Positions 15,792-62,094 of a stretch of 64,000 nt of DNA are shown here, in pieces. The first letter of the stretch is position 1; each line of letters begins with the position of its first letter. Source of the DNA: Escherichia phage SP15; sequence record AP019559. One strand, given 5' to 3'. Both the position numbers and the translations under genes were made by a program. Below the pieces are notes generated by a model. It was not told where the DNA came from. It ran no database searches and saw only the letters and a list, made by a program, of their open reading frames with translations.

Positions 15792-15820
15792 ATTATACAG
15801 AATTTTAAGGCTTAAAGCAA
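15792..15820 (-). promoter_or_regulatory. T5-type early promoter (sigma70-like)
   Basis: On minus strand TTGCTT, 17-nt spacer, TATAAT, AT-rich upstream. Confidence 0.6.
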
Positions 15821-15837
15821 CTGAATTTTTTAATTAC

Positions 15838-16269
15838 TTACCAATCGTTAACAACGCCGGAGAACTCAGAAGCAAAAACTTTTTCAAATTTCTCTGCAAT
15901 TTCAGGATGATCTTTGCAGATCAGCTCAATACATGCTTCTGGAGTCATTCCTTCATCTTCAGGATCACCATAGTATTTATCCCAAAGATCATCGGGAATG
16001 ATATGCTCCGCCAAATCTTGGAAAGAGACTAACTGATAACGTTCTGCCTCCTCAGCGATAAGAATTTCGCATAGATCTTTATCTATATCGCTACGATAAT
16101 CCGCAATTAATAAGGCATTGCAAGCATGACACTCCCAAACCATCAAGCGTTCAGAAATAGGATTAGACTTATCCTGTACGTAAGACTGAAACAGGGTTCG
16201 GAAAGTTGCCTTAACTTGTTCAAACTTATCTGCTGCTGCGAAAACTAGAGCTTTATCAACTTTGTTCAT
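15838..16269 (-). CDS. hypothetical acidic protein
   Basis: 143-aa ORF. Confidence 0.55.
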   Translation of the reverse strand: MNKVDKALVFAAADKFEQVKATFRTLFQSYVQDKSNPISERLMVWECHACNALLIADYRSDIDKDLCEILIAEEAERYQLVSFQDLAEHIIPDDLWDKYYGDPEDEGMTPEACIELICKDHPEIAEKFEKVFASEFSGVVNDW

Positions 16270-16299
16270 TTTGATTCCTTCTCATCAATTTATACAGTA

Positions 16300-16328
16300 A
16301 TTATACAGAAACTTAAGCATTTTAGCAA
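16300..16328 (-). promoter_or_regulatory. T5-type early promoter
   Basis: Minus strand TTGCTA, 17 nt, TATAAT. Confidence 0.6.
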
Positions 16329-16436
16329 ATAAAACTTTTAATTAAAATGCCTAATCCTGTGCCAATAGCAATACAAATGATTATAAGTATTGCTATCGCC
16401 TGTATGATTCGTTTAATAATAACCTCAGCTATATAC

Positions 16437-17027
16437 TTAGACATTTATATCGCCACGCAATACAGCAGCTACGTCTTCTCCTATTTGTAATACCTCGCCG
16501 GTAGTACAATTAACCACTCTATCGTAACTAGTAAACTTACCAGACACAATATCCTCTAGTGGAATTGGAGTTCTACTCATTTCAAATGAGACATTAATAT
16601 AACGTGGGTCACGTAAAGAAGTAGTATGTACATGTCCGTGAATATTTAGTTTGCCACGAAGTTCATTGGGATGCAAAGGGCAGTGAGATAGCCAAAACTT
16701 TTTGCCACCTCCAGTCTGTTTGCCTAGAGCTTGAATATCGTCATAAACTTCCGCTAAGTCCCTAATACTCAGTCCTTGACGCTCCGCATCATGATTACCC
16801 ATAATGAGTTGATTAGGGACATTGTGGATAACCGACTTTAATTTGGCCAGACCTTCACGACCTACTGCAATATCTCCTAGCAAAATAAGTTTTGTTCGTT
16901 TACCAATATGCTTGGACAAAGTATCTAGAATATACTCGTCGTGCTCTTTCATGTTCTTAAACCACGGACGGAAACGTAACGCTCCAGGGTGGTCTAGATG
17001 CAAGTCTGACCAGAATTTAACTTTCAT
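16437..17027 (-). CDS. calcineurin-like metallophosphoesterase
   Basis: Motifs 'DLHLDHPG', 'GDIAVG', 'GNHD'. Confidence 0.65.
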   Translation of the reverse strand: MKVKFWSDLHLDHPGALRFRPWFKNMKEHDEYILDTLSKHIGKRTKLILLGDIAVGREGLAKLKSVIHNVPNQLIMGNHDAERQGLSIRDLAEVYDDIQALGKQTGGGKKFWLSHCPLHPNELRGKLNIHGHVHTTSLRDPRYINVSFEMSRTPIPLEDIVSGKFTSYDRVVNCTTGEVLQIGEDVAAVLRGDINV

Positions 17028-17316
17028 TACTCTTTTCCTTATTCTGTATTAAACTATCAACCCAAGAGGTTAACACTTTGGTTTTAAACTCCTCGGGAGT
17101 CTCTCCTTCCTTAAGGTCTACCTCATTAAGGTAGGTAGTAAGCCTTGTTTCTATATCTATTTCAGTAGGAGAATTAAAACAAAAATTGACTGCTATTCCA
17201 GAATATATTACTCCGGTATCTCCTTTGACGAAAGCATTAACTAATGCCCTCCAACGAAGGGCATCAATACGCATTGCTCGTAATTCTTCTCGTACTTCTT
17301 TCATTCTATCATTCAT
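17017..17316 (-). CDS. hypothetical protein
   Basis: 99-aa ORF. Confidence 0.5.
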   Translation of the reverse strand: MNDRMKEVREELRAMRIDALRWRALVNAFVKGDTGVIYSGIAVNFCFNSPTEIDIETRLTTYLNEVDLKEGETPEEFKTKVLTSWVDSLIQNKEKSNES

Positions 17317-18191
17317 TAAAGAGTCCTCTGTACACCGCAGCTATTATTTTTGTCTGTGGTAAATGTGGTGATTTTGCCAGTTTCATCATTAACTTGCGCA
17401 ACCGTCAACTGCCCGTTGAAGACACCGCCAGTATCTAGGTAAACACGGTTTTTATAGAGAAGCGGGTAAGGTACTCCAGTATGCCCATGGAACACAAAGT
17501 CTACTCCACTAACTGGAGGTACTTCTACCATGTATTTTTCTTTAAATCCTGCATAACGCTGGAAATACGAGTGTTCCTCGCCATTTTTAGACAAATGGAA
17601 GCCTATTTCTTGGATTACATCTCGATCCCATAAGTATGGTTCAACATGGTATCCAGGATGGTCATGCGGGTCTTCCTTAGCTGCTTCTACTTGTGCAATA
17701 AGGTTATCCCATACTGGGGTTTCTACTTCGTTACCACATTCTTTGTACGTAAAAGGTACACCACCATGAACAACACCATACTTCTTACCACGATGTCTAA
17801 CAGTTAGGAATACTGGCATTTTTTCAGCCATGTCTTCGGCAATATTTTTAATGGTATCTGCATCTAGCTCATTCATAGCCCACATACCACCGTTATACAT
17901 CCAATTAGCCCAATCTCCCACAATCATAAACTGGTCGTGGTTTCCACGAACGCTACAAAAACGTGGATTATATAAGAATTTAGCTAAAACTTGTAGGTTC
18001 TGCGTGCCTCGATCAATTAAATCCCCCACGCATATAACGCAATCTTTCTTGCCGTTATAGCCAGCTAATTGTAGGGCATCTTCTAGCAAATCATTGCATC
18101 CATGAATATCGCCAACAAAGAATAAGTTAACATCATCAGGTACTACTAGTGTTTTATGCACATTAAATTCTTTTTTCATAATTATTCCCAA
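17316..18191 (-). CDS. Ser/Thr protein phosphatase (PPP family, lambda-phosphatase-like)
   Basis: Motifs 'GDIHG', 'GDLIDRG', 'GNHD'. Confidence 0.8.
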   Translation of the reverse strand: MGIIMKKEFNVHKTLVVPDDVNLFFVGDIHGCNDLLEDALQLAGYNGKKDCVICVGDLIDRGTQNLQVLAKFLYNPRFCSVRGNHDQFMIVGDWANWMYNGGMWAMNELDADTIKNIAEDMAEKMPVFLTVRHRGKKYGVVHGGVPFTYKECGNEVETPVWDNLIAQVEAAKEDPHDHPGYHVEPYLWDRDVIQEIGFHLSKNGEEHSYFQRYAGFKEKYMVEVPPVSGVDFVFHGHTGVPYPLLYKNRVYLDTGGVFNGQLTVAQVNDETGKITTFTTDKNNSCGVQRTL

Positions 18192-18427
18192 ATAACATTT
18201 AAAATAGTTGTGCCATATTCATTAGATAGTTGGAGAGTATAACCCTCTTTATTGAGGGCTTTTATAGCTTCATAACTAATTTCGTCACGGTTAAACTGCA
18301 CATAAGAACCTCCAATCTCTACAGAAGATACTATCCTCCGCTTAACCCATCTATATGTTTTCTTTCGGCTCTTAAGGGACGCGGCTCTATTTATCCTAGC
18401 TAAACGTTTTGCTTGCTCTGCTAACAT
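18182..18427 (-). CDS. hypothetical protein
   Basis: 81-aa ORF. Confidence 0.5.
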   Translation of the reverse strand: MLAEQAKRLARINRAASLKSRKKTYRWVKRRIVSSVEIGGSYVQFNRDEISYEAIKALNKEGYTLQLSNEYGTTILNVIWE

Positions 18428-18454
18428 TTAATCCTCCTATCAATCTATACAAAT

Positions 18455-18483
18455 ATTATACCAAAATTTTTAGCAAAAAGCAA
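18455..18483 (-). promoter_or_regulatory. T5-type early promoter
   Basis: Minus strand TTGCTT, 17 nt, TATAAT. Confidence 0.6.
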
Positions 18484-18524
18484 GTAAAATAAAAGCCTGA
18501 TCCGCTAAGATCAGGCTTGGTTTA

Positions 18525-18815
18525 TTAATCCTCTGGATTATCATCCAGGAAATTTTTAATAGCTTCGTGCATAGTTTCTTTACGAAGCTGACGTCCAATC
18601 AAAATATGATTAGCTTCTATTCGACCATTAGGTAAGCGATCTGCCAGAACTACTACAGGTACTTGACGTACACCAAATTTCTGCATTAATTCTGTATTAT
18701 CAGTCTCTTTATGGATTTCCAAATTATAGTCATTGACTACTTTATCAAATACTGGTTCGAAAAGTTTACATGGGTTACAGGTGGAACCTTTTAATAGATA
18801 GACTAATTTAGACAT
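18525..18815 (-). CDS. thioredoxin-fold redoxin (CxxC)
   Basis: Track ORF 18525..18842 trimmed to the ATG at 18815 (AAGGAAA RBS); 'CNPC' active-site-like motif. Confidence 0.5.
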   Translation of the reverse strand: MSKLVYLLKGSTCNPCKLFEPVFDKVVNDYNLEIHKETDNTELMQKFGVRQVPVVVLADRLPNGRIEANHILIGRQLRKETMHEAIKNFLDDNPED

Positions 18816-19314
18816 TTTTATTTCCTTTGCTGGCAAACTCACCGTGGAGTTCTTCTAGTTTTTCATCTCTCCATGCAATTGCTTCTTCCAAAGAACTGCA
18901 CGTTTTCATATAATTGATTCCTGCTCTAGAGATTTTTACTCTAAAAGACTTCCCTCTTTGAGATATATTTTTTAATCCCAATAGGTTATTTTTATTAGCC
19001 GATTTCCTATTAAAAGCATTTTGAGCTTTTGTAGCTTCTCTTAAGTTACCAATACGATTGTTTAGCGTATTGGTATCATCATGATCTACTATATCAGGTA
19101 AATAGCCTTTGTGCATAAAGAAGATTGCTCTATGCGCAAGTATTCGTTCTCCATCAATAGAGAGCATTAGATAGCCATCAGCATTAATAGACCCAGCAGG
19201 CATATTGTTAAGGCTAGTATTCCAACCTCTTGTACCTTCCGGTCTAGGTTTCCAGGTTAGAGTACCATCTTCGTGGTACTCTAATACCTCTAATAATCTC
19301 TCCCTAGTAATCAC
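18808..19314 (-). CDS. HNH homing endonuclease
   Basis: 'VDHDDTNTLNNRIGNLREATKAQN' HNH core; C-terminal tail shared with the ORF at 23623. Confidence 0.7.
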   Translation of the reverse strand: MITRERLLEVLEYHEDGTLTWKPRPEGTRGWNTSLNNMPAGSINADGYLMLSIDGERILAHRAIFFMHKGYLPDIVDHDDTNTLNNRIGNLREATKAQNAFNRKSANKNNLLGLKNISQRGKSFRVKISRAGINYMKTCSSLEEAIAWRDEKLEELHGEFASKGNKNV

Positions 19315-19739
19315 AATTTATTAATGGCCTCTAAGAAGTTTTTCATAGTTTTTACGGTTGCGGTGCTCAGATCAAGATTTACACCCAAACACTCGGTTAA
19401 TGCTTCCTGATAAGGAGCCTTTAATCTGCCTTCTGGGACTTCTACCTTCTTATACTCTTTATTTTTGACCTTTTTAATCATAGTCTCTAGTACAAGAAGC
19501 GGTAATTTAGCACCTTCAATATCAGTACCCAAAAGTTCAGTTAAAATTTTATTAAGATCAAGACGAGTTAACTTTTTGCCCTTAGACATAGATGCACCTA
19601 CCTTTGTATCAATAGATTTTTCCGCTTTCTTTTCGAGCTTTTTGTACTCAGGAGAGTCATGATCACGGAGTGCAATGTTTAGCTCGTAATGTGGTATACG
19701 AAAATGTTCCGCCATTTGAGTGTAGAAACGATCAGACAT
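19311..19739 (-). CDS. hypothetical protein
   Basis: 142-aa ORF. Confidence 0.5.
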   Translation of the reverse strand: MSDRFYTQMAEHFRIPHYELNIALRDHDSPEYKKLEKKAEKSIDTKVGASMSKGKKLTRLDLNKILTELLGTDIEGAKLPLLVLETMIKKVKNKEYKKVEVPEGRLKAPYQEALTECLGVNLDLSTATVKTMKNFLEAINKL

Positions 19740-19814
19740 AATATATACCTCTCTTAACTAATTTATGTATATATTATATAATAACTAGGGCTAAAAGTCA
19801 ACTACTTTTTTATC

Positions 19815-20231
19815 TTAATCTACTGCATGTATAAATCTTTTCCTAACTAGATACATAGTTATTGGGTAAATTGAGTACATAAGTATCGGGGAGAAAAGGG
19901 TGAAATACGCTGTAACTCCCCCAGCTAACATCAAAGGTATTAATGCTAGAGTAAGGGCCATAAGAATCATACCGAATGAAACAGCCAGAGCTATGGATAT
20001 AGGATTCTCTAGTTCCATCCATAACCAACAATATTTCGTATCTCTATGGCAATTGCATTTACAAACGCCGAATGAACCCATAATTATATACTCTAGTCCG
20101 TGAATAACCTTTATTAATAAGCTATTTCGGGTAGTTAATGCAATGATAGTAAAGACTATCATTAAAACGAATACTACTAGACTTATTTTCCAGATACCTA
20201 GCAGCATCATAGTGAATAGTTCTGCAAACAT
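19815..20231 (-). CDS. multi-pass membrane protein
   Basis: 138 aa with several hydrophobic segments. Confidence 0.45.
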   Translation of the reverse strand: MFAELFTMMLLGIWKISLVVFVLMIVFTIIALTTRNSLLIKVIHGLEYIIMGSFGVCKCNCHRDTKYCWLWMELENPISIALAVSFGMILMALTLALIPLMLAGGVTAYFTLFSPILMYSIYPITMYLVRKRFIHAVD

Positions 20232-20308
20232 GGCTTTCTCCTATCTTCAAAAATTATTAAAGCCCCCTTTGCCTAAAAAGGCGGGAATATTCCCGCCTAA
20301 GTTATTAA

Positions 20309-20722
20309 TTAAACTAGTTCGACATGACCGCCATCATAGGTACCACGTTTTATTTCATCGTGATAGTCTCCCGAAGCATTCCAATCAGCACCAAAACGAA
20401 GTTTAATGCCTAGCTCTTTACCAGCTTGTTCAAAAGCCTTTTTAACTGCCCAAAATGCTTCTAAGTCATTCCAATCAATTTTGCCATTAATATATGGAGC
20501 AAAATCAATAGCATCCCCAGTAATATGTTTGCTTTTACTAGGATCTTTTAGAAATGAAGTACCATTAGCAATGTTCTGGGCACTTTGTGCTACTGTACGA
20601 ATACCTTGCACGATTGTGAAATCATACGGAGATAGTTCTAAAGCCCTACGAGCTACTTTTTGTAGCTCGGGCTTAACGGTAGCTAATTGTTTTTCACTAT
20701 TTTTACCAAATTTAAAACTCAT
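20309..20722 (-). CDS. lys: endolysin, L-alanyl-D-glutamate peptidase (M15-type, EndoT5-like)
   Basis: 137-aa protein; length and sequence match what I recall of the T5 endolysin. Confidence 0.85.
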   Translation of the reverse strand: MSFKFGKNSEKQLATVKPELQKVARRALELSPYDFTIVQGIRTVAQSAQNIANGTSFLKDPSKSKHITGDAIDFAPYINGKIDWNDLEAFWAVKKAFEQAGKELGIKLRFGADWNASGDYHDEIKRGTYDGGHVELV

Positions 20723-21375
20723 ATTGATCTACCTAAAGATCTCTGTTGTGGGGAACAGAGCTTTGCTAAATATTCCTTGAACTGTTCAGAATCAGCTGTA
20801 TCTACCGGATTATCTTTCCAAGCAATACCAATGTACCCAGCATAGATATTTTTTAGATTGAAGTATGGACAAGTGTATATGTAATTAAAAGTAACGTTTT
20901 TAAACGCAGGTATATTTAACCCCATATATTTATTTACTCTTACACTTAAATCCGATGCGTAGTTAAAGCCCTCTAAATGACGTCTGTATAATTCAGACGT
21001 TTTATTTACCGCTTTATCGGCCAAGTCAGCCCTATCTAATTGCGCATTACTTTCCCATGCAATAATATTGGAATAATCATTGATAGCATCTGGTTTATAC
21101 TTGACTACAAAAACAGCATCTGCACCCGTTTGAGAGAAGAGAACCATGCTCTTTTCCCTCGCCACATTAGGGAAGTTATCTATCCTCTGGGTTTGTAAAT
21201 CTTGTAAAACTGCAGACGTGGAAAAAGTCTTTAAGAATGACATCACTTCACTAGTATTACTAACAAATAAGAAAATAATGACAGCAACTAAGATAGTTAG
21301 CAGACGTTTAAGAAGCGATGCTGGATCTTTCGCTTCTTGGAGCAGTACCGTTAATAATTGTAAGAACTTTTCCAA
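20719..21375 (-). CDS. holin-like membrane protein
   Basis: 218 aa with N-terminal transmembrane segment, directly upstream of and 4-nt overlapping the endolysin. Confidence 0.6.
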   Translation of the reverse strand: MEKFLQLLTVLLQEAKDPASLLKRLLTILVAVIIFLFVSNTSEVMSFLKTFSTSAVLQDLQTQRIDNFPNVAREKSMVLFSQTGADAVFVVKYKPDAINDYSNIIAWESNAQLDRADLADKAVNKTSELYRRHLEGFNYASDLSVRVNKYMGLNIPAFKNVTFNYIYTCPYFNLKNIYAGYIGIAWKDNPVDTADSEQFKEYLAKLCSPQQRSLGRSI

Positions 21376-21531
21376 TTGTAACCTCCTCTAACCAGTACCA
21401 TTATACTAATTTTGGAGGAAAATTACAATGTGTTTTTAAAGATCACTTCTGGAGCATAAAATTTTGTCGTTGTCAAGAAGAATTTTAGATAAAAGAAAAG
21501 CCAGGGTCGTTAAACCCTGGCTTAAAATTAC

Positions 21532-22131
21532 TTACTCTTCGTTATGCTCCTCGGATTGAGGTAACTGGGCTTTATTATATTGCTCAGATCGATATTTTGC
21601 CAAGATTTCAATACGCTTATGGATTTCTTTGCTATCTAGATAGATATTTTTGTTGTCTTTTACCATCTCGTCGATTTCGTCTATAGAGAAGAACGGATAG
21701 TAGACATCTAGCATCATATCTTCTACGAACTTGTTGTAAGATTCATAGGCTTTCTTGATTTCTTGACCCTTCTCACAGAATCCGCCAGAGAACGTGTGTC
21801 CCATTAGCGTAGCATGTGGATGTACTACCCATCCATGACAGGATAGGAAAATTGTGCAGTAAGCAGAAGCACTAGGACCAATCAGGTGTCCTATAACTGT
21901 TCCACGGCAATTAGCAATTAAGTTAGATAACTGTGCAGCAGTATCAACATAACCACCAGGGCCATTAATCATCAGATTAATTTCGTCGTCCTCATTTGCT
22001 TGCATAAGTACCATTGATAAATCACGGTATTCATCCGGCGGGCCTAATTCTTCATCAAAGAAAAAGGTATACTCATTAGACTGGCGAATGGAGTGAAACA
22101 GGTTAGTCTTTTCTTCTTTTTTATTAGTCAT
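21532..22131 (-). CDS. ClpP-like serine peptidase family protein
   Basis: 'INGPGGYV' and 'GPSASAY' resemble ClpP motifs. Confidence 0.5.
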   Translation of the reverse strand: MTNKKEEKTNLFHSIRQSNEYTFFFDEELGPPDEYRDLSMVLMQANEDDEINLMINGPGGYVDTAAQLSNLIANCRGTVIGHLIGPSASAYCTIFLSCHGWVVHPHATLMGHTFSGGFCEKGQEIKKAYESYNKFVEDMMLDVYYPFFSIDEIDEMVKDNKNIYLDSKEIHKRIEILAKYRSEQYNKAQLPQSEEHNEE

Positions 22132-22143
22132 AGCGATCCTTGA

Positions 22144-22896
22144 TTATCCAACTAGTGGTTCTAGCTCTAAGTCACAGAAGTTATAAACTTCTAGTTTAAG
22201 GTTATTGATACCATCGAATTTATTAACTAATTCGTGAGTAATATATTTTGCAGGAATACCACTTTCAGATGGATGATCTGATTTAATAGTGAACTTCTGC
22301 TCAGCGGGTACTACATTTACTATCAAAGAATCCATATCTAAATGGTTTGTTTCTCTGAGTAACTCTCCTTCATTGGGGAATCTAACATCTGTTATTACGG
22401 CGACATCTGGGTCGTCTTTAGCGATGGATTGCTCCAGAATTATGAGCCAAATGCGTTCATGTACCAGCTGCCTTCCTAGCTCTGTTCCTACGAGCTGTAA
22501 CATTTTTCTCGGAGAAATAAATAAACTATAAAGTCCGTCTTCTTTATTCTCTGAGATAAGTTGTTGAGGATTAAGATATTTTTCCTCAAAAATCGGCCAA
22601 ACGTACGAGAAGTCTTCAAACTTATTGATACCGTATTTAAACCATACGTCTCTAGCTCGCTCCAATTGAGATTGTGTGACCGTAAACCATTGGTCAATCT
22701 CTTTCCCCCTGCGCTCTCCTAGAAACTCTGGAGTTACACCGAGGATTACGGATGCAAGTTCATAAACGGGCTTAGCAAAACTATAACGACGGGGTAAACA
22801 CGTTGGATACGTGTCATTACACCAATCGATAATTAATTTTGCAACGGTATCTTTTCCCGAACCAGCTTCACCATGTAAACCGACTAATACTGACAT
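22144..22896 (-). CDS. dnk: deoxynucleoside monophosphate kinase
   Basis: P-loop 'GEAGSGKDT' near the N-terminus; 250 aa. Confidence 0.7.
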   Translation of the reverse strand: MSVLVGLHGEAGSGKDTVAKLIIDWCNDTYPTCLPRRYSFAKPVYELASVILGVTPEFLGERRGKEIDQWFTVTQSQLERARDVWFKYGINKFEDFSYVWPIFEEKYLNPQQLISENKEDGLYSLFISPRKMLQLVGTELGRQLVHERIWLIILEQSIAKDDPDVAVITDVRFPNEGELLRETNHLDMDSLIVNVVPAEQKFTIKSDHPSESGIPAKYITHELVNKFDGINNLKLEVYNFCDLELEPLVG

Positions 22897-23249
22897 TAAT
22901 CTTTCCTATTGTTAATTGGTGGATAATATACTAAACAACGTTTTTCTTGCAAATCTTGGCGGTAGAAGCAAACCATACTAGTCAGTCGTGAGATATATGA
23001 ATATTCTGCCTCACGGCATTTTGCCAACATATTCCAATCTTTGTATGGTACAACAACTACTACGCCATCTTCCCCATTTGTAGCTAATTTCTTTTCAAAC
23101 TTAAAGTCAAAGCTACAAGGCTGAAGTCCTTTAGGCCAATCCACATGGGCTTGCTTTAACTCATGTGACGGCTCTGGTACTACCGTTTCTGCACAGCCTG
23201 TGATTGTGATTGCGGCTGCGAGCAGTATTCCAAGTTTCCAGTTAAACAT
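22896..23249 (-). CDS. outer-membrane lipoprotein, o-spanin candidate
   Basis: Signal peptide with lipobox 'ITGC'; start lies inside the upstream gene. Confidence 0.5.
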   Translation of the reverse strand: MFNWKLGILLAAAITITGCAETVVPEPSHELKQAHVDWPKGLQPCSFDFKFEKKLATNGEDGVVVVVPYKDWNMLAKCREAEYSYISRLTSMVCFYRQDLQEKRCLVYYPPINNRKD

Positions 23250-23623
23250 GCTAATCTTTCCTCGAACTCCTTACTCTGCTTTTTAGCAATTAATGTAACC
23301 AATCCAGGCTTTGCAGCTATAATATCTTGGCGACTAAGAGCTTTGTCTAACTGCTTAATCTTTTTGTCTAGATCTGCTTGCGAAATATTATTCATTGTGA
23401 AATACTGATTCATTCTAGTCTCACGAAGTTCGCTTTCAGCTTTCACCTTATTGAGGGAAGTCTCTAGAGAAGAAATCTTTTTAGTAGCCACCGCAAGATC
23501 TCCTGCTAAAGTCTCCACTTTATCTACTAAGTGATAAGCACCGAACCCGATGCCTATCGCTAGACCTGCTCCCAGGATATACATCTTGTTATTCCAAACT
23601 AAGTCTACAAACCATTTCCGCAT
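23180..23623 (-). CDS. i-spanin candidate (type II membrane protein with coiled coil)
   Basis: N-terminal transmembrane helix then long coiled-coil; 3' end overlaps the lipoprotein ORF. Confidence 0.5.
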   Translation of the reverse strand: MRKWFVDLVWNNKMYILGAGLAIGIGFGAYHLVDKVETLAGDLAVATKKISSLETSLNKVKAESELRETRMNQYFTMNNISQADLDKKIKQLDKALSRQDIIAAKPGLVTLIAKKQSKEFEERLACLTGNLEYCSQPQSQSQAVQKR

Positions 23624-24120
23624 TAGCCTGTACTCGCAAACTCACCGTGGAGTTCTTTGAGTTTGGTATCCCGCCATTTTATAGCCTCTTCCAAACTCTT
23701 AAGTGTTTTCGAAACTTGCTTACCATGTTTGGTAATTCTTACTTGGTAAGTCCCATTTGTTTTTCTATGGATATTTTTAACGCCTAAATGGTTATCGCTT
23801 CTTACTTTTTGGTTACAAGCATTATCAGATCTTGTAGCAGGCCTTAGATTCTCAAATCTATCATTAGTTGAGTCTTTGTCCTTGTGATCAACTATTTCAG
23901 GCCATTCTCCAGTATGCCATGCATAGATTAATCTATGTGCCCCTATAGCTATGGAACCATTATATAGTTCAACTACTCTATGCCCTGTACTTTGTCTAGA
24001 TCCTGCTACTGTTCCGGCGAATATCTTATTAAAATGTTCGTCCCCTTCCCTGGGTTTCCAGATAAGATTACCATCTTCTTGGTAATCGAACATTCTTCTT
24101 AGCTCTTCCTTACTGATCAT
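23623..24120 (-). CDS. HNH homing endonuclease
   Basis: 'VDHKDKDSTNDRFENLRPATRSDN'; paralog of the ORF at 18808. Confidence 0.7.
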   Translation of the reverse strand: MISKEELRRMFDYQEDGNLIWKPREGDEHFNKIFAGTVAGSRQSTGHRVVELYNGSIAIGAHRLIYAWHTGEWPEIVDHKDKDSTNDRFENLRPATRSDNACNQKVRSDNHLGVKNIHRKTNGTYQVRITKHGKQVSKTLKSLEEAIKWRDTKLKELHGEFASTG

Positions 24121-24815
24121 CTTTTCATATTCCTAAAAGAAGTAACAGTATCAAATCCATGTGCAGCTAAGCGATCCTTATCGGAAATCGTAATAGTATT
24201 TGGTTCGCCGGTTCCTAACACGCCCCAGATATATTGCTCGATCATCTGGTGCAAACGGTATAAGTTACTTTCAATTTCCTGCCACGGAATACCTGACTGA
24301 TGGAAACGAATGTTAGTCTGAATCACGAAGTTACGAACATCATCGTTATCGTTCTTCTTGATACCTTTCACATATGCAATCGGTACACGCAGTTCGGACA
24401 AGATACGTTCTGCTTTAGGTTTTGCTTCAACGAGCAAATCACGCATTGTTTCACGAACATCTCCGCGACTCTTATCCATTAAGTAAGAGCGAGCATGCAA
24501 TCCCATCTCTTCCATTTTATCGAACATAGTGTCGAGGTTGAACGTTTTGAAGCTAAATGCTGGATGCCAGCAGTACAGCTCGTGTAACCAGTAAACTTCA
24601 CCTGCAACAAATAGTGGGTTTACAAAATATTCGAAATCACCACGGAAAGATAGCGAACCATCACGAAATACCTGACGACTATGCACGATGTTCTTTTCTG
24701 CATCATCAGTTACTTTAACCAGTAGCTCTTCAGTTTTACGCTCCCAAACACGATCTGCATCAAATAAACTGTTCTGCAAATCATATACATCGGCGAATTT
24801 AGAAATGATCCTCAT
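24117..24815 (-). CDS. hypothetical protein
   Basis: 232-aa ORF downstream of an early promoter. Confidence 0.55.
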   Translation of the reverse strand: MRIISKFADVYDLQNSLFDADRVWERKTEELLVKVTDDAEKNIVHSRQVFRDGSLSFRGDFEYFVNPLFVAGEVYWLHELYCWHPAFSFKTFNLDTMFDKMEEMGLHARSYLMDKSRGDVRETMRDLLVEAKPKAERILSELRVPIAYVKGIKKNDNDDVRNFVIQTNIRFHQSGIPWQEIESNLYRLHQMIEQYIWGVLGTGEPNTITISDKDRLAAHGFDTVTSFRNMKR

Positions 24816-24846
24816 ATTTAATCCTCTTGCCTCAATCTATAAACAT

Positions 24847-24874
24847 ATTATACAAAAGTTGGGCATCTAAGCAA
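24847..24874 (-). promoter_or_regulatory. T5-type early promoter
   Basis: Minus strand TTGCTT, 16-nt spacer, TATAAT. Confidence 0.55.
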
Positions 24875-24968
24875 CTAAAATTTTATTATAAAAATAGCCC
24901 AGTCGCAAAAGTGCAGGCTGGGCTTTGTCATTATTTGCTTTTGCTAGTAAGCTGACTTAGTGTCAATC

Positions 24969-25349
24969 TTATGTAATATTAGTTTCTCTAGCTTTGCGTA
25001 GTACCCCTGCATTTCTCCACAATTTGATGTCAGCAACTGTTTCTTTATAAGGAGCTATGGTAAAACCTAGTGGGCCAGCACTAAATAATCCTAAGAACCC
25101 TACAATACGCATGTAGAACAAGCATTCTTTGGCTGTCATATTATTTACTGCTTTTTTCTGCTTTTCATCTTTAAACTTCTGTTCTTGATCACCAATACGT
25201 AGATATTTAACAAACCATTCAGCAGAATGTTCGTCCAAATGTCTAATAATAGCTATCGCATATCCAGCACCGATTAAAAACCAAGTTGCAACAAGAATTA
25301 GTAATATAGTCATATTATCTCCAGTTAGGGCTAGCAGCCACCTCACCAC
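24969..25349 (-). CDS. membrane protein
   Basis: 126 aa, two or three hydrophobic helices. Confidence 0.5.
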   Translation of the reverse strand: MVRWLLALTGDNMTILLILVATWFLIGAGYAIAIIRHLDEHSAEWFVKYLRIGDQEQKFKDEKQKKAVNNMTAKECLFYMRIVGFLGLFSAGPLGFTIAPYKETVADIKLWRNAGVLRKARETNIT

Positions 25350-25423
25350 TTACCGCACTAAGGGGCACGACTCCCTTATCCGTAACAGTTGCAGGTGACG
25401 CAACTCGGTCCTACGCGAGTTCT

Positions 25424-25708
25424 TTAAGTATTCTGCATTTCAGCTTTAAATTTTTTCATATTACGAGTTTTTCTATAAAAGAAAAACACAGATGTTGGGC
25501 CTAGAAGAATATCCACAATAAATATCACAGATCTAGCACATCTGAGTAATGTTTTATCATCAAGAGGTGGCAGATCTAACGGTCGAGTTTTATGTATAAC
25601 GTATAATATTACATCTTTATTCTTAGAAATATAAAGATCATCAACCAAGCTGTAAATAGCAACCACAGATCCAATGACAAACCAAAGAGCAAATGGAGAG
25701 ATAATCAT
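25424..25708 (-). CDS. membrane protein
   Basis: 94 aa. Confidence 0.5.
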   Translation of the reverse strand: MIISPFALWFVIGSVVAIYSLVDDLYISKNKDVILYVIHKTRPLDLPPLDDKTLLRCARSVIFIVDILLGPTSVFFFYRKTRNMKKFKAEMQNT

Positions 25709-26001
25709 TTCAGATCCTTTTCATTAATTAGAATATTAGTAAACAGTGGAGTAACTCCTAGACTCATAGTAGGTCCAAACGTATTCATGGCTACCCATAG
25801 CTGCATAGTGATCATCCCATCTTTAATCTCTGGATCTTTATATTCTTCGATACGTTTCTTGGTAAAAGCAACTATATCTGGATTATTTTTATTTTCCTGA
25901 ATATAGTCATGCCAAAACTGAGTATTCTCACTACGTAGGAATGTTAAAACATCCTTAGTTGCTGGAATCTGCACTGTGCTGTTGATGTTTAGTCTTTTCA
26001 C
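25705..26001 (-). CDS. hypothetical protein
   Basis: 98 aa. Confidence 0.5.
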   Translation of the reverse strand: MKRLNINSTVQIPATKDVLTFLRSENTQFWHDYIQENKNNPDIVAFTKKRIEEYKDPEIKDGMITMQLWVAMNTFGPTMSLGVTPLFTNILINEKDLK

Positions 26002-26374
26002 GTTCTTCTCTCCGACGTTTGCGTTCTTTTATCATATGAGCTGCTACAACTTCATGGTAGTAGTCATTAATGTTATCTTCTGGCAAGAAATGCTTAATAG
26101 TCTCTAGCTGACAAATAACTCGATGAAGATGGTTATTTGGTAGACACAATTTTATACCTGCAACAAATCCAGAGAAGCCTGGAACACTGAACATGGGTTG
26201 GGCTTCTACTCTACCTTCAGAGTTGATATTAAGCTCAATTGAGATACCCATTTTCACGCTATAAAGCTGGCAATATTCTCCGTTACCAGACCTTGACCAA
26301 ACAGTGAAGTCCTCATCAATTTGATCTTGAATTTCTGTAATAGCAAATTTAATTCTAGGATCTAAATTATTCAT
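25955..26374 (-). CDS. hypothetical protein
   Basis: Track ORF 25955..26398; internal ATG at 26374 reduces overlap; start uncertain. Confidence 0.45.
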   Translation of the reverse strand: MNNLDPRIKFAITEIQDQIDEDFTVWSRSGNGEYCQLYSVKMGISIELNINSEGRVEAQPMFSVPGFSGFVAGIKLCLPNNHLHRVICQLETIKHFLPEDNINDYYHEVVAAHMIKERKRRREEREKTKHQQHSADSSN

Positions 26375-26666
26375 CTTCACCTTCAAAGTCGCAATCATAA
26401 CGACAAGTAAAAGAATCAGAACTATTAGTACGTTGAGTGGTTATTTCACCGCGTTTGCTAATAGTAACGGCTGGAGTAGAGAAGTTTTTATTAGTATATA
26501 TTTCTACTTTACCATTACGTTCCTTAACATCACGCACTTTACCATACTCGGTAATAATGCCGTTCTGTTGGACTTTAACATTACCATTTTTCATAGAAAC
26601 TTTGGTAGATGCCAGAGAACCGAAACTAACTGTGGAGATCATCAGTGCAATAATAAACTTATTCAT
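26367..26666 (-). CDS. secreted protein with signal peptide
   Basis: Track ORF 26367..26732 trimmed to MNKFIIAL... (GGAGG upstream); cleavable signal-like N-terminus. Confidence 0.45.
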   Translation of the reverse strand: MNKFIIALMISTVSFGSLASTKVSMKNGNVKVQQNGIITEYGKVRDVKERNGKVEIYTNKNFSTPAVTISKRGEITTQRTNSSDSFTCRYDCDFEGEDE

Positions 26667-26940
26667 CTTCATCCTCCCCACTACAATCACGACATACATC
26701 ATAATCGTTGAAAGAACGTTCGTGAGCTTCACACCACCAAGAACAAGAATCGCAGAGAAACATTTCGGTTTTCTCTAGTGCTTGACCTAAAAGATCATCA
26801 GCTTCCTCAGCAGTAATCTTCAATCCGCACACATCTGCCACACGTTCTTTAATTAAACGACCTGCTTCGTGATAAGACATACAGGTTCCCACAACATCAT
26901 GTTCAAGAACATGAACAGCACAGTCTAGACGAGTTTTCAT
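26659..26940 (-). CDS. Cys-rich acidic protein
   Basis: 93 aa with CxxC-like pairs and acidic tail. Confidence 0.5.
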   Translation of the reverse strand: MKTRLDCAVHVLEHDVVGTCMSYHEAGRLIKERVADVCGLKITAEEADDLLGQALEKTEMFLCDSCSWWCEAHERSFNDYDVCRDCSGEDEDE

Positions 26941-26970
26941 TTCAAACCTCTCTCATCAATTTATAAATAT

Positions 26971-51235: not shown

Positions 51236-51377
51236 TTGGCTTTCCTTTTTATAGTTATCAGGATTTAAGGAATATTTTACTTTATTATCGGTCATTAGGC
51301 AAATAAAATTTTCTGATAGAAAAGGCCCGAGTATTTTCATACCCAGGCCCTGTATATTACCAGTCTAGCTTTTTAGC

Positions 51378-51599
51378 TTATTCAATTACTTTAGCTCTAG
51401 CTACTTCTTTTAATAGAATATCTATGGAGGTGCTCAGCTCGTTATAATTGAATGGTTTATTTGGATTTGAGGTTACAATTTTCCACGCTAGGGTTGTCTT
51501 AGGACTTTCTTCCCCTTCCTTACGTGTAATCATATTAGCAGCACTCAGTGAAGTACGATGTATTTTAGTTTTACGGCTCAGATGAACGACGTTTCCCAT
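51378..51599 (-). CDS. hypothetical small protein
   Basis: Track ORF 51378..51650 trimmed to the ATG at 51599, directly after the phoH stop. Confidence 0.4.
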   Translation of the reverse strand: MGNVVHLSRKTKIHRTSLSAANMITRKEGEESPKTTLAWKIVTSNPNKPFNYNELSTSIDILLKEVARAKVIE

Positions 51600-51600
51600 A

Positions 51601-52362
51601 TTACACCTTCCCCATGTCTTTAAAGATGTCATAGAATGCTTTAGACTCAACAGAACGAACGTTATCCATCAATTCGATCATTGAGAATGGGGCATTTTCG
51701 TATTTCTCATAGACTTCCATAAGGAGTGCTAGACCTGAGTCACCTTTAATGTCTTTCTGAGCTATATCTCCGCAGATAATTAAACGGCAGTCTTGTCCTA
51801 CACGAGTTAGGAGACAAATCATTGCCTCAACGGAAATATTCTGAGCTTCATCGACAATTACATAGGAGTTGTTGAAAGTTCTGCCACGAGCATGTTCGAT
51901 AGCCAAAAATTTAATTTTCTGACGTTCGACATATCCCTTATAGGCATGTTCGCCGATGGCCCATTTCATACCATCAGCTATTGGCTCCAACCAAGGCTCT
52001 AGCTTTTCTGCTAGATCACCAGGAAGCATACCAAGAGACTTACCTAGAGGTTCATTAGGACGTACGAGGATCACTTGCTCAATATCTGAGTGAATGTCTA
52101 CGAGTTCCTGAGCTGCAAGAACGGACGGAATAAAGGTTTTACCAGTACCTGGCTCACCGATACCCACAGTCACTGTGTTGTTCTTGATCATATTGATATA
52201 TGATTTTTGCTCGCGGTTTTTACCTACTAGGGATTTAGCAACTGGGTTAGCGTAATCATTAGAAAAATCAGCCTGAATTACGTTATTCTCATACTTGTTG
52301 CCACGCTTTCTTGAACCATTGCGGTTCTCTCTTTTTTGACGTGCTTTTCCCATAAATAACAC
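51601..52362 (-). CDS. phoH: PhoH-like ATPase
   Basis: Walker A 'GEPGTGKT' and PhoH-like length. Confidence 0.8.
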   Translation of the reverse strand: MLFMGKARQKRENRNGSRKRGNKYENNVIQADFSNDYANPVAKSLVGKNREQKSYINMIKNNTVTVGIGEPGTGKTFIPSVLAAQELVDIHSDIEQVILVRPNEPLGKSLGMLPGDLAEKLEPWLEPIADGMKWAIGEHAYKGYVERQKIKFLAIEHARGRTFNNSYVIVDEAQNISVEAMICLLTRVGQDCRLIICGDIAQKDIKGDSGLALLMEVYEKYENAPFSMIELMDNVRSVESKAFYDIFKDMGKV

Positions 52363-52647
52363 TCCTATAGTGTACTTCGCTAACAGAGGATCAACAAAAA
52401 GATCTTGTTTATCAACTTACAAATATATTATACCAATATATACAGTAAAAAGCAACTACAATTTTAAATAAGCCTATGATATTGCATTTAAATAAAAAAT
52501 TTGCTTGCTTTTAACGTGAGATGTGTGATACTAGATAATCATTTTATATCGCGTGCACGAGTGCGTGATTATACAATTTTTAATAGAGATTGGCAAATAA
52601 AATTTTTTGACTCAGATCATGTTACAGAACTTTATAGTAAAATATTG

Positions 52648-58522: not shown

Positions 58523-58552
58523 TTGCAAGGGAGTATTATTTTATAGTATAAT
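58523..58552 (+). promoter_or_regulatory. candidate sigma70-type promoter preceding a ~480-nt leader
   Basis: TTGCAA, 18-nt spacer, TATAAT. Confidence 0.4.
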
Positions 58553-59049
58553 ATTCCCATAAATGAGAGATATTAGTAAAAATTGATTTTGCTAATTTTT
58601 CTTGTTTACAATCCGCGATACGGAACAGTTAGGCTGCCCCATTAAGGGTTGTTTTAACTGTTACGTGTTAGTTTTTAAGCAAATAATTAATAGAATACTT
58701 AGCGATCTGCGTCCCGTAGGAACCCTGGTAAGGCCTCGAAGCAACCTAGATAGAGGTGGTTGTGAAGTGAGACGGGAGGAGTGAAAAACTCCGAGACGTG
58801 ATTCTGTAAGTTATATTGCATCTAGTATGAGCTAGTATATGAAGCATTAGGTGAGCAAATCTGGCTTAGCGGCCATCCTCAAGGATTTGTGCGGTATAGC
58901 AAAGCAGCAGCGCAGCGTGAAAGTGGAAGTTGCCACCCCACTTCAGTATTTGCGATTAATTTGTTGAGAAATTGACAGTAACAGTTGTTCTATTCTTTCT
59001 GAATAGTCCTAAAGAAAACTTATTTCATTTCCAACACAGGAGTATTGTT

Positions 59050-61839
59050 GTGTTTTCAATCCTACAAGGTCATGCAGGATTTCATCGCGATTTAGCCACA
59101 GGCAATTGGCGAGAAGTTAAGGCAGAAGATTATCTTTTTGCTAAAAGATTTTCCTCAAAGCATCCCGAAGGTAAACCAGCTTCAATGCCCTTCAAGTTTG
59201 ATGTAATTGATGAAGTTGATCCTCAAACCCTAGTAGAAATGCTTCCTCTTATGAGACGTTTAACGTCTGACCCTCATATCGTTGCGGTACGAGGTCGATG
59301 TCTTGCACCTAAAAATAATGTGCGACGTAAGAAGGGCAACTTTAATGTATCTAATCCAAGTCATATAATCGCAATGGATGTGGATGGTATTGTAGATACA
59401 GGAGGTTGTAACAAGTTTGATCTTGTTGGCATGGCGCGTCATATTATTAGGATGTTGAATAGTATTAGTGAGGATATGTTTCCTCTTGATGCAGGGTTTA
59501 TTGCTCATGCATCATCTTCGGCTGGCCTAAAACCAGGTATCCGAATGCACTTAATACTAGAATCTAATGTTAAAGTTACACAGGGTCAGATCAAGTTCTT
59601 ATTTACATCTATCAACGAAAGTAGTAGACAAAAGTATGGCTTTGATATTGCCGACTTAGCTTATTACTCTTCCGTACAGCTCCACTATTTTGCAGATCCT
59701 TTATTTACTGATGGTATAGTTGATCCGTTTAAAGCGGAGGGTGCTTCACGTCTGGTATTTGTTAAAGGCTCAAAAGTAAATTTACCTAATAATCTAGTTG
59801 ACTATGAAACAACTAGAGGAGAGTTTAAAGAGGAATTCTACTCTTTACTCGATCAAATTAAAGGTAAAAAAGCCGCCTCCGATAAAGTAGAGGAAACTAT
59901 CAGCGAACTAGAAGAAGCTGAGGATGGAGTGTATCTACGTATTATTCCTAAACTCTATCACAGGGCTTTAGAGGATGGTGTTGATTTTGCATGGCTAGAA
60001 AAAGAAATCCGCCCAGCCTTATCAGAGTATATTGCAACTAAAGATAATAGTCGTAATATTCAAGATTATTTTAACAACGGTAGAAAACAGGCTCTGAAAG
60101 CGTTTGTTAATAATTCTAAACGTGATATACCGGATGTTTTAAAAGGTATTCCACTTAAAAAGCTAGAAACTAACTCTCTAGAGACTGATAACTTCTTGAA
60201 ATTAAATACTGTACCACCAGAAGGTTATATGACTTTTGTAAAAGCAAGTCTAGGTACAGGTAAAACTACGGCGGTTGTGCGTTGGTTAGATTCAGGAGTT
60301 ATTAAGGGTAATTTCTTAGCAATTACCAATACTCGAGCACTGGTATCTTCAAATGCTAAGAAATTTAGTGCAGGACAATATGATAAGTCTGTAGATATGC
60401 TTAATTTTAAGCGTGGCGCTATTGACCGTATGTCCACAACTATACATTCTTTGCATAAGTTCAAGAGTTTTATTGGTCAAATCGATGCAATCTTTATCGA
60501 TGAATGTGACGCTGTAATGAATGACCTATTATTCGCCCCGGTTGTTAAACAACGTCGTGAATGTATTCAGGTTCTTCGGGATATTCTTGCAACTGCAAAA
60601 ATCATTATATTATCTGATGGTGATATTAGTGCTGAAACAATTGAAGCATATGGTTCTTTGATTGAGTTTGATAAACCGGTTGCATTTTATAATCATCACC
60701 GTAAGATGCTGTCAAAAGCTCATGCTTATGAGTTCCCTGATGAATCTAGTATTTGGGTTGCACTTCAGACCTCTCTAGAGATGGGTGAGAAATCTATTCT
60801 GGTATCTGATTGTGGGCCGGATGAGCTGAATGAGAAAGGTATGGCACTGCGTCGTAATACGGGTGCGTTAGTTAAGGAAATCCATTCAAACTCTACCTCA
60901 GATGTGGATATTAGACGTATTCTGGATTACACAACTAATGAACTAATTGATCAACAAATTGATTGTTTATTATGTAGTCCATCCGTAACGAGTGGTGTTG
61001 ACTTTAACTATTTTGATAACGTATTTGTTATTACTAGAACTAGTAATCAAGCGCCAAACATGCGTTTCCAAGCAATCAGGCGCGACCGTGGTGCTCAGAA
61101 TATCTATTATTTTATTGATAAATCCACTAGTGGATTCTCCGCAGGTTCTGAACAATATAATATTGATGAGGGTTGGCTGGAGTTAGCACAGCAATTATAC
61201 GCACGTCGCAGGGAGCTGGAATCTAGGAACTATACTAGTACTTTACGTTATTACTTACTTGATCAGGGTGCAACTATTGATATTTTCAGTGAAAGCTGGG
61301 GAACTATTGAAGGTGCTGGTAAAGAGTATACAGAAGAGCGAATCAAAGCTATTCTGCACTCAACTCCTGATTATTGTGCTCCACGTCATGCGGATGCGTA
61401 TGAAGCTAAACTACTTCTTGTTCGCTATTATCATCTGGAGTCTATTAAAGATGTAACCGTTGAGCATGTTGAACAATATATCAAAGATAAGCCGAATGAT
61501 CGAGCTGCATTCTTCCATAAGATGCATGAGATGTTCTGGGAAGATATTAAGAAGTGTTCAAATGTCACTATCAAACCTTTCATAGAAGCTCTGAAAGGTA
61601 AGAAGAAAGATTTCTTCCTTAAAACAGGTCAGAGTGCTAACCCAAAATATGCTAGAATGTATCTTGGTATGATGGGTATTGGTAAAGATATGAACACGGA
61701 GAATATCGTAGACTGGTACAGAACCTATTGTAAAATCGAGTGTATGCCAATTCCTTTCAAATTCATGACAGAGGAAGAACGTCAGATGCACGAGGAAGCA
61801 ATGTCAGAGCTAGGTGCTAGAAATGACAGTGAAGAATAA
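59050..61839 (+). CDS. primase-helicase-like protein (AEP-type primase/polymerase-like N-terminus fused to P-loop NTPase)
   Basis: Track ORF starts at 58972; GTG at 59050 has AGGAG 7 nt upstream; 'IIAMDVDG' DxD motif, Walker A 'GTGKTT', Walker B 'IFIDECD'. Confidence 0.55.
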   Translation: MFSILQGHAGFHRDLATGNWREVKAEDYLFAKRFSSKHPEGKPASMPFKFDVIDEVDPQTLVEMLPLMRRLTSDPHIVAVRGRCLAPKNNVRRKKGNFNVSNPSHIIAMDVDGIVDTGGCNKFDLVGMARHIIRMLNSISEDMFPLDAGFIAHASSSAGLKPGIRMHLILESNVKVTQGQIKFLFTSINESSRQKYGFDIADLAYYSSVQLHYFADPLFTDGIVDPFKAEGASRLVFVKGSKVNLPNNLVDYETTRGEFKEEFYSLLDQIKGKKAASDKVEETISELEEAEDGVYLRIIPKLYHRALEDGVDFAWLEKEIRPALSEYIATKDNSRNIQDYFNNGRKQALKAFVNNSKRDIPDVLKGIPLKKLETNSLETDNFLKLNTVPPEGYMTFVKASLGTGKTTAVVRWLDSGVIKGNFLAITNTRALVSSNAKKFSAGQYDKSVDMLNFKRGAIDRMSTTIHSLHKFKSFIGQIDAIFIDECDAVMNDLLFAPVVKQRRECIQVLRDILATAKIIILSDGDISAETIEAYGSLIEFDKPVAFYNHHRKMLSKAHAYEFPDESSIWVALQTSLEMGEKSILVSDCGPDELNEKGMALRRNTGALVKEIHSNSTSDVDIRRILDYTTNELIDQQIDCLLCSPSVTSGVDFNYFDNVFVITRTSNQAPNMRFQAIRRDRGAQNIYYFIDKSTSGFSAGSEQYNIDEGWLELAQQLYARRRELESRNYTSTLRYYLLDQGATIDIFSESWGTIEGAGKEYTEERIKAILHSTPDYCAPRHADAYEAKLLLVRYYHLESIKDVTVEHVEQYIKDKPNDRAAFFHKMHEMFWEDIKKCSNVTIKPFIEALKGKKKDFFLKTGQSANPKYARMYLGMMGIGKDMNTENIVDWYRTYCKIECMPIPFKFMTEEERQMHEEAMSELGARNDSEE

Positions 61840-62056
61840 AAAATGGGAAACAAGGAAGTTTCCAGTAAAAGAACGCAAAGTTCCTGTTTATGATACTTCG
61901 GAGAAGCTATGTAGGGTGGTACCGCATAGATTAGCTGGTATCCCTAACATATCCGAGTGGTTACTTAAACAACGGAGGACTAACGTATCTCTTCGCGTAG
62001 GGTTTGAGTTAGATAAAGTATATGCTGAACTTTCTTCTTTGCTCAAAGAATCATAA
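61823..62056 (+). CDS. hypothetical basic protein
   Basis: Track ORF 61814..62056 trimmed to the ATG at 61823. Confidence 0.45.
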   Translation: MTVKNKKWETRKFPVKERKVPVYDTSEKLCRVVPHRLAGIPNISEWLLKQRRTNVSLRVGFELDKVYAELSSLLKES

Positions 62057-62065
62057 AAAATTTAT

Positions 62066-62094
62066 TTGCTTTCAGGAAAAATTTTCTGTATAAT
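62066..62094 (+). promoter_or_regulatory. T5 early promoter, P_N25-like
   Basis: TCATAAAAAATTTATTTGCTTTCAGGAAAAATTTTCTGTATAATAGATTCATAAATTTGAGAGAGGAG matches my recollection of the classic T5 P_N25 promoter; TTGCTT, 17 nt, TATAAT. Confidence 0.8.

Follow-up and report, generated by a model that had tools for sequence, protein, structure and literature searches.

The 64,000-nucleotide stretch of Escherichia phage SP15 analysed here (record AP019559; called the window below, with all coordinates counted from its first letter) carries many copies of one short element, an A/T-rich block followed by TTGCT(T/A), a 17-nt spacer and TATAAT, and these copies raise three questions: what they are, whether the plus-strand copies at 54623-54651 and 62066-62094 form a duplicated pair equivalent to the T5 promoters P_N25 and P_N26, and whether a 13-bp inverted repeat at a minus-strand copy, 34631-34659, acts as an operator for a tRNA transcript. 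A first-pass annotation, made from the letters of the window, had proposed near-consensus early promoters, such a pair and such an operator. The answer that we hold with high confidence is that the copies are sigma-70-dependent early promoters of a T5-like phage, built as standardised cassettes, and that the repeat at 34631-34659 (promoter P14a) is most likely a stem-loop formed in read-through RNA.

A promoter cassette over-represented in the early region

The window contains 21 exact matches to the pattern TTGCTW-N17-TATAAT for an expectation of 0.09, and none of 100 shuffled sequences (0/100) reaches 21; 18 of the matches lie on the minus strand (15792..52455) and three on the plus strand (54623, 62066 and 63092). 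A position weight matrix (PWM) built from these 21 strict sites, with a cut-off of 25 bits and Markov-shuffled sequence as the null, recovers 25 sites at or above the cut-off, for a null maximum of about 0. Allowing spacers of 16-18 nt brings the number to 28, the additions being 24847-24874 (minus strand), 58523-58552 (plus strand) and a relic at 5545-5574 (plus strand). The early region holds 27 co-oriented sites in total, 21 strict and six relaxed, with the one relic outside it; the whole-window scan bears out the more than a dozen sites first noticed. A generic sigma-70 consensus scan (TTGACA/TATAAT) of the window shows no enrichment, with 34 matches found and 43.4 ± 6.2 expected; the signal is thus specific to the family pattern.

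The conservation extends well beyond the two hexamers. Column consensus and information content of the 21 aligned sites reveal an A/T block, aAAAAaTTtA, which ends one base ahead of the -35 element, a partly conserved spacer, and a conserved block, ATaTtcATAAATTgatGAGAGG, which lies 3' of the -10 element and continues into the ribosome-binding site; the two features by which the family is recognised, the A/T block and a conserved initial transcribed region, are both present in the window. All 27 early-region sites point in the direction of the adjacent long open reading frames (ORFs) or tRNA genes. At 20 of the 25 sites tested, the promoter is followed by a Shine-Dalgarno (SD) sequence and by the start codon of an ORF that is 56 residues or longer; in 16 of these 20, the start codon lies 26-33 nt after the -10 element. 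The other five (31446, 33914, 34631, 35924 and 40329) precede tRNA or stable-RNA genes.

No functional-looking family member was found in the pre-early region, where the sole hit (5545) has a degenerate -35 element and lacks a downstream ORF; the promoters annotated there in T5, P-D/E20 and P-H22 (window ~4.65-4.85 kb), carry TTGACA-type -35 boxes. The hit at 5545-5574 (plus strand) retains a family-type -10 element and the downstream block TATAATatacatataaattaatgaga, has TAGCTA at -35, and is surrounded by sequence with no alignment to T5; this is probably the remnant of a promoter cassette that has decayed.

Orthology to promoters of T5 and phage 5

Two 3-kb samples of the window match hundreds of T5-like phages (Demerecviridae, mostly Tequintavirus), with identities of up to 96.7% and 99.4%, the latter between the 33.5-36.5 kb sample and the curated 'Bacteriophage 5 tRNA gene region' record, AJ604531; none of the matching records is identical to the samples. 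Judged by its sequence, the window is a T5-like (Tequintavirus) genome, a member other than T5; it aligns to T5 strain st0 as a mosaic of blocks that are 83-97% identical, with the pre-early left end at ~0-10 kb and the early region next to it. The early-region promoters are directed leftward as far as 52.4 kb and rightward from 54.6 kb onwards, as they are in T5. In T5, all three gene classes are read by the sigma-70 holoenzyme and strong sigma-70 promoters stand ahead of the early genes (Klimuk et al. 2020, PMC7472727).

Promoter annotations were taken from T5 st0 (AY692264), T5 RefSeq (NC_005859) and phage 5 (AJ604531) and mapped onto the window by BLAST, named promoters being matched to sequence through these GenBank annotations. 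This alignment to published T5 promoters, which had been suggested as a check, places 26 of the 27 early-region sites on a promoter annotated in T5 or Salmonella phage 5, many of them named and some experimentally studied; the sites that lack a name (the names being P-F30, P11-P16-17, P-D/E33, P-H207, P-N25 and P-N26) are T5 'putative promoters'. The reverse comparison agrees: the same strict pattern matches the T5 record 20 times, 19 of the 20 inside annotated promoter features. Taken with the 21 matches against 0.09 expected, this orthology upholds the initial assignment to a near-consensus early promoter family of the T5 type. The sites are as follows.

15792-15820, minus strand: early promoter, -35 TTGCTT, 17-nt spacer, TATAAT, SD and ATG 32 nt after the -10; 98.5% identical to T5 st0 'putative promoter' 16243-16310
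16300-16328, minus strand: P-F30 orthologue; 98.6% identical to annotated 'promoter P-F 30'
18455-18483, minus strand: early promoter with a terminator hairpin directly upstream; strict match; T5 putative promoter 18549-18615
19773-19801, minus strand: family member, -35 TTGACT; 100% identical to T5 putative promoter 19366-19432
24847-24874, minus strand: family member, 16-nt spacer, terminator hairpin upstream; T5 24441-24508 aligns to window 24819-24885
26971-26999, minus strand: early promoter; strict match; T5 putative promoter 26720-26787
29110-29138, minus strand: P11, -35 TTGCCT; phage 5 'promoter P11'; T5 putative promoter 28598-28665
31446-31474, minus strand: P13b, ahead of stable RNA and tRNA genes that it would drive; strict match; annotated promoter
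32387-32415, minus strand: P13a; strict match; annotated promoter
33914-33942, minus strand: P14b, upstream of tRNA-Cys; 100% identical to phage 5 P14b
34631-34659, minus strand: P14a, -35 TTGCTC; PWM 39.9 bits; annotated in AJ604531 and NC_005859; upstream of the tRNA-Tyr/Glu/Trp/Phe genes (34565-34225)
35002-35031, minus strand: P15c, TTGCCT, 18-nt spacer; 100% identical to phage 5 P15c; annotated in NC_005859
35924-35952, minus strand: P15b, directly upstream of tRNA-Ser (35908); strict match; annotated promoter
36479-36507, minus strand: P15a; strict match; annotated promoter
40329-40357, minus strand: P16-17, upstream of the stable 'RNAX' and tRNA-Arg; strict match; annotated promoter
41011-41039, minus strand: orthologue of T5 P-D/E33; strict match; placed by annotation mapping
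41851-41879, minus strand: early promoter; strict match; T5 putative promoter 34860-34927
43178-43206, minus strand: early promoter; strict match; T5 putative promoter 36186-36253
45051-45079, minus strand: orthologue of T5 P-H207; 75/75 identical
45401-45429, minus strand: early promoter, spacer complementary to the downstream SD region; strict match; T5 putative promoter
46216-46244, minus strand: early promoter, terminator hairpin upstream, T5 homology break just 3' of the -10; strict match; T5 putative promoter
48830-48858, minus strand: early promoter, terminator hairpin upstream; strict match; T5 orthologue with an HNH endonuclease gene right after the -10
52427-52455, minus strand: final early promoter of the leftward set, where the two early directions diverge; 100% identical to T5 45431-45497
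54623-54651, plus strand: rightward early promoter after the nrdD terminator; strict match; T5 putative promoter 47660-47727
58523-58552, plus strand: family member, TTGCAA, 18-nt spacer, after an HNH endonuclease ORF; T5 putative promoter 50951-51018
62066-62094, plus strand: orthologue of T5 P_N25, with one spacer mismatch; putative +1 at A 62101
63092-63120, plus strand: orthologue of T5 P_N26, with one spacer mismatch

The site at 24847 is only a probable orthologue of T5 24441-24508, since the T5 site has TTGCAT and a spacer of 17 nt. Klimuk et al. (2020, PMC7472727) report a primer-extension product of the early class for P15A, the T5 counterpart of P15a, and describe it as barely visible on the gel. 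Complex formation between the T5 N25 promoter and RNA polymerase has one of the highest known rates, a finding of the Bujard laboratory as summarised in PMC7059391. A literature search for modern mapping of T5 transcription starts returned nothing relevant, and one on P_N26 found only papers on unrelated subjects.

The family is already known and annotated, with public records for T5, phage 5 and BF23. T5 early promoters have been studied since the 1980s (Gentz and Bujard reportedly treated them in 1985), and P_N25 is used in the commercial pQE expression vectors.

Three further observations concern promoters around the family. In T5 st0, a strict match at 45599-45627 (minus strand), between divergent early promoters, is not annotated as a promoter, and the window has no strict match there. 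The T5 orthologue of window 52648-52699 (plus strand) reads TTGACA-N17-TATAAT, and phage 5 P12, 100% identical to window 36605-36679 (plus strand), reads TTGACA...TAAAGT. The plus-strand islands and the first rightward unit carry promoters of another type, and early transcription does not all start from the TTGCTW family.

P_N25, P_N26 and the most similar pair of sites

The sequence TATAATAGATTCAT corresponds to positions -12 to +2 of P_N25 (PMC7472727), which would place the +1 of the window orthologue at 62101. Window 62059-62120 differs from T5 P-N25 in one spacer base, window 63072-63146 differs from T5 P-N26 likewise in one spacer base, and the two promoters are 1026 bp apart both in the window (62066 and 63092) and in T5. 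The pair that lies 1026 bp apart and flanks the first rightward gene pair after obp is thus formed by 62066 and 63092, not by 54623 and 62066. The annotation of 62066 as P_N25-like was correct; its supposed partner 54623 maps to T5 47660-47727 and is not P_N26, which is found at 63092-63120.

The sites at 54623 and 62066 are nevertheless the most similar in the window, ranking first of 300 pairs. Over the 55 positions that run from 7 nt before the -35 element to +19 after the -10, they agree at 48, including a longest exact common word of 15 nt, TTTATTTGCTTTCAG; the genuine P_N25/P_N26 pair shares 31 of 55, the family average being about 33 (mean 60%, standard deviation 8%). The earlier figure of about 60 shared nucleotides is roughly right as a description, but the pair is the tail of a continuum, the next pairs sharing 45, 44 and 44 positions.

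Whether this makes the two sites a recent duplication or gene-conversion pair, beyond two members of an old family, is doubtful in our judgement. Their first rank, the common word TTTATTTGCTTTCAG and an unusual AGATT discriminator, seen at no other site of the window, speak for such an event, but the lead over several unrelated pairs is only 3-4 positions, the spacers have 7 mismatches, and there is no relation between the upstream flanks, one of which holds a terminator and the other coding sequence. Both sites also stand at orthologous places in T5, so that any duplication would be older than the split between T5 and the window. The term 'duplicated' is thus weakly supported: the pair is the most similar one, yet barely ahead of others.

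The inverted repeat at P14a

The inverted repeat is present as first described: on the minus strand, the arms GCACTGAGCAAGT (34687-34675) and ACTTGCTCAGTGC (34661-34649) form 13 bp around a 13-nt loop, with the A/T block of P14a in the loop and the -35 element TTGCTC (34659-34654) in the 3' arm.

34649-34687, minus strand: hairpin with a 13-bp stem and a 13-nt loop, at P14a; supported by the inverted repeat, the RNA fold and the sequences of relatives

The stop codon of the upstream ORF, a homologue of T5.072, precedes the start of the hairpin by 9 nt. Folding of the RNA gives a minimum free energy of -26.5 kcal/mol and a centroid value of -22.6 kcal/mol, with z = -5.06. Conservation of the hairpin was followed in T5, EC148, six Epseptimavirus genomes, 15 viral contigs, 6 metagenome contigs and six more phages; the contig searches, anchored on the -10 element and the leader, brought up no more than 15 viral and 6 metagenome loci, mostly of the same isolates, which limits covariation statistics. 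The left arm is non-coding, yet almost invariant in these relatives. Among 17 distinct gap-free sequences, 96.8% of the stem cells are paired, compared with 23-40% when partners are slid; two-sided changes are seen at two pairs, and G.U or U.G at four.

The order of these substitutions can be read from individual loci. In L016, C>U and A>G changes in the left arm only give U.G and G.U pairs, and such intermediates are found in L016, L008 and L029; in L021/L034 and L029, the matching right-arm changes G>A and U>C have been added, completing the compensation and turning the -35 element into TTGCCC. Phage phiR2-01 has two further A>G wobbles in the stem. RA40 has one extra nucleotide in each arm, and the two compensate each other to give a perfect stem of 14 bp; gmork and SE3 have only one of the two arm insertions each. 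The pairing is thus kept by compensatory and wobble changes, as in a conserved RNA stem-loop, with modest support from few independent events. An Rfam search around P14a gave no family match to the hairpin.

These changes bear directly on the operator proposed in the first-pass annotation, in which a dimeric repressor of phage or host, bound to both arms, would control the tRNA-Tyr/Glu/Trp/Phe cluster. P14a does precede this cluster, a perfect 13-bp palindrome does cover its -35 element, both arms are strongly conserved including the non-coding left one, and the two-sided changes preserve dyad symmetry as well as pairing. Repressor operators, however, have closely spaced dyad half-sites that usually recur at several regulated promoters; here the arms are 13 nt apart, with half-site centres separated by 26 bp, which is unusual, and the arm motif has no other occurrence in the 64-kb window even with up to 2 mismatches. 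Moreover, three lineages tolerate transitions in a single arm after which G.U is the only pairing left, and one lineage has a base pair inserted within both arms, which would alter a half-site and leave the helix intact. No repressor is known for the T5 early promoters, and PMC7472727 describes how they are controlled in time as unresolved. Operator control is thus improbable, and the sequence comparison makes an RNA stem-loop in read-through transcripts the more likely nature of the repeat.

A different function for the same stem-loop would be that of a true terminator or attenuator, ending the transcript of P15c and its ORF, so that the tRNA cluster would be expressed only from P14a. Such an arrangement would follow a local design rule, as five other family promoters (18455, 24847, 46216, 48830 and 54623) each come directly after a canonical terminator hairpin, with its T-run merging into the A/T block of the promoter (coordinates approximate):

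18484-18520: GC-rich terminator hairpin with T-run, upstream of 18455
24875-24915: GC-rich terminator hairpin with T-run, upstream of 24847
46245-46275: GC-rich terminator hairpin with T-run, upstream of 46216
48876-48897: GC-rich terminator hairpin with T-run, upstream of 48830
54580-54615: GC-rich terminator hairpin with T-run, upstream of 54623

The P14a hairpin is also very stable and close behind a stop codon. It has the stem of an intrinsic terminator, but its loop is 13 nt long and its stem is followed by CUUAAAACUUGG, which contains no U-tract; a terminator scan, which calls the hairpin upstream of 48830, makes no call at P14a. We therefore consider a true terminator unlikely, if less so than an operator.

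The possibility that the left arm of this palindrome holds a divergent promoter on the plus strand was also considered and is rejected, as there is no -10-like hexamer at usable spacing.

A second hairpin at a promoter core

The spacer of the promoter at 45401, AAAGCCCCCT (45423-45414, minus strand), is complementary to the SD region of the gene downstream, AGGGGGCTTT (45384-45375, minus strand). The resulting hairpin (window 45375-45423, minus strand) has a fold of -28.1 kcal/mol, z = -5.41; T5 has AAAGCCCTC/GAGGGCTTT there, a compensated pair (CCCTC/GAGGG), and the metagenome contig L030 has a U.G variant. Since the 5' arm lies upstream of the transcription start, the hairpin is possible only in read-through RNA, where, to judge by the pairing, it would mask the SD sequence. 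An Rfam search around it returned only tRNAs and noise.

A model of the early region

In the proposed model each cassette would span about 95 bp, from an A/T block at about -47 to -37 through the -35 element TTGCTW, a 17-bp spacer and a perfect -10 element TATAAT to an A/T-rich discriminator (often ATATT), followed in its 3' part by the conserved initial transcribed region ATAAATTGATGAGAGG, which runs into the Shine-Dalgarno sequence and places the start codon about 26-33 nt after the -10 element. By its architecture, the A/T block resembles a proximal UP element and may contact the C-terminal domain of the alpha subunit (alpha-CTD) of RNA polymerase, and the transcribed region may influence later steps of initiation. 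Literature from the Bujard laboratory is the background to both the UP-like role of such a block and the influence of the transcribed region, and T5 early promoters are recognised directly by the Escherichia coli sigma-70 holoenzyme. Once the second-step-transfer DNA is inside the cell, the host holoenzyme would read the cassettes, about 27 of which would cut the early region into short units, leftward from ~52.4 to 15.8 kb and rightward from ~54.6 kb, with the tRNA and stable-RNA clusters included.

The stem-loop at P14a would be confined to RNAs initiated at P15c and extended past the upstream ORF; placed between an mRNA and a tRNA cluster, it is probably 3'-end protective or weakly attenuating, and its sharing of sequence with the A/T block and the -35 element would be happenstance.

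Several points weigh against this interpretation. Promoter activity in SP15 is predicted from orthology and architecture. The ATATT discriminator, common to the known T5 early promoters (PMC7472727), is found in part only: an ATAT start occurs in 10 of 25 sites and an AT start in 16 of 25, P_N25 itself having AGATTC. At the P14a stem, the covarying events are few, perhaps 3-5 lineages; the shuffle control (2/500) should not be read as a probability; no Epseptimavirus sequence keeps the second pair from the stem base; and the compensated changes, which also keep the DNA palindrome, are by themselves compatible with a protein site. The strand preference is modest, with 5 sense-only wobble cells against 2 distinct antisense-only sequences (3 loci: L030 and L021/L034), and the hairpin lacks a U-tract, so that any function given to it is putative.

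Mosaic junctions near promoter cores

Three junction events between the window and its relatives fall within 10 nt of a promoter core, at ~46208, 48823/48828 and 58547. At 48823/48828, T5 has an HNH endonuclease gene (T5p093) inserted right after the -10 element; at 58547, the window has an HNH endonuclease ORF upstream (58050-58514), and homology to most relatives begins at the -10 element. Counted as block endpoints, 4 of 27 lie near promoter cores, a number that uniform placement reaches in 15 of 5000 trials.

The cassettes could thus double as recombination junctions for modular exchange and homing-endonuclease insertion, like the PeSL of T4-type phages, a reading to which the five composite terminator-promoter modules also lend themselves and which we regard as possible, though tentative. 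The remaining 23 of 27 endpoints are at least 62 nt from any promoter core, BLAST endpoints are imprecise, and one genome pair was compared; and because the uniform null ignores the preference for intergenic places that junctions and promoters share, the excess at promoter cores is suggestive only.

We would further venture, at a similarly low level of confidence, that the cassettes add two layers to early-gene organisation: promoter elements at two or more sites, P14a and 45401 among them, may double as arms of hairpins that form only on read-through, so that read-through RNAs would be processed or translated differently, and cassettes may serve as PeSL-like crossover points in Demerecviridae.

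Other features of the window

Between the promoter at 58523 and obp (SD and GTG at ~59050) lies a leader of ~490 nt, 58560-59045 (plus strand), with no convincing ORF; it is conserved in most T5-like phages, GC-richer than its surroundings, and has a fold z of -3.01. The leader at 58.5-59 kb has no Rfam match; it could be a structured 5' untranslated region, a non-coding RNA or origin-related DNA.

Two minus-strand segments in the tRNA-rich part resemble tRNAs. The first, 35739-35813, scores 40.3 bits with the Rfam tRNA model, is uncalled by ARAGORN and corresponds to the tRNA-Ile2 of the phage 5 annotation. The second, 40019-40090, lies within the stable-RNA region 'RNAX' and is a borderline hit, with 28.3 bits for a gathering score of 29.

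Comparison with known systems

The analysis shows that a real regulatory family can be recovered from raw sequence by a scan; it moves the P_N26 assignment from 54623 to 63092-63120 and replaces an unsupported operator reading by a testable RNA stem-loop reading. The read-through-only hairpins and the junctions at promoter cores offer material for a modest comparative study of early-gene organisation and exchange in T5-like phages.

The closest known system is that of the T5 early promoters, which have the same positions and orientation and near-identical sequences (one spacer base each in P_N25 and P_N26, 75/75 in P-H207), as well as the same architecture of A/T block, TTGCTW, 17 nt, TATAAT and conserved downstream region. 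The window differs in being another, mosaic Tequintavirus member, with altered -35 elements, spacer lengths or flanking genes at 24847, 46216, 48830 and 58523.

Very strong sigma-70 promoters with UP elements, such as rrnB P1, likewise have an A/T-rich block immediately upstream of the -35 element; the window family keeps only the proximal part of this block, and its contact with the alpha-CTD is putative. With operators of the lambda or lac type, P14a shares a palindrome over a core promoter element, but it differs from them in the 13-nt gap between the arms, in being a single site and in its RNA-like substitutions.

The PeSL cassettes of T4-type phages (PMC2839356, PMC4122927) are repeated early-promoter motifs, some of them fused to a terminator stem-loop, at the boundaries of variable modules, and resemble the window cassettes in this respect. 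The window cassettes differ from them in phage family and sequence; among the 27 sites only 5 have a terminator part, and the recombination role is no more than a suggestion.

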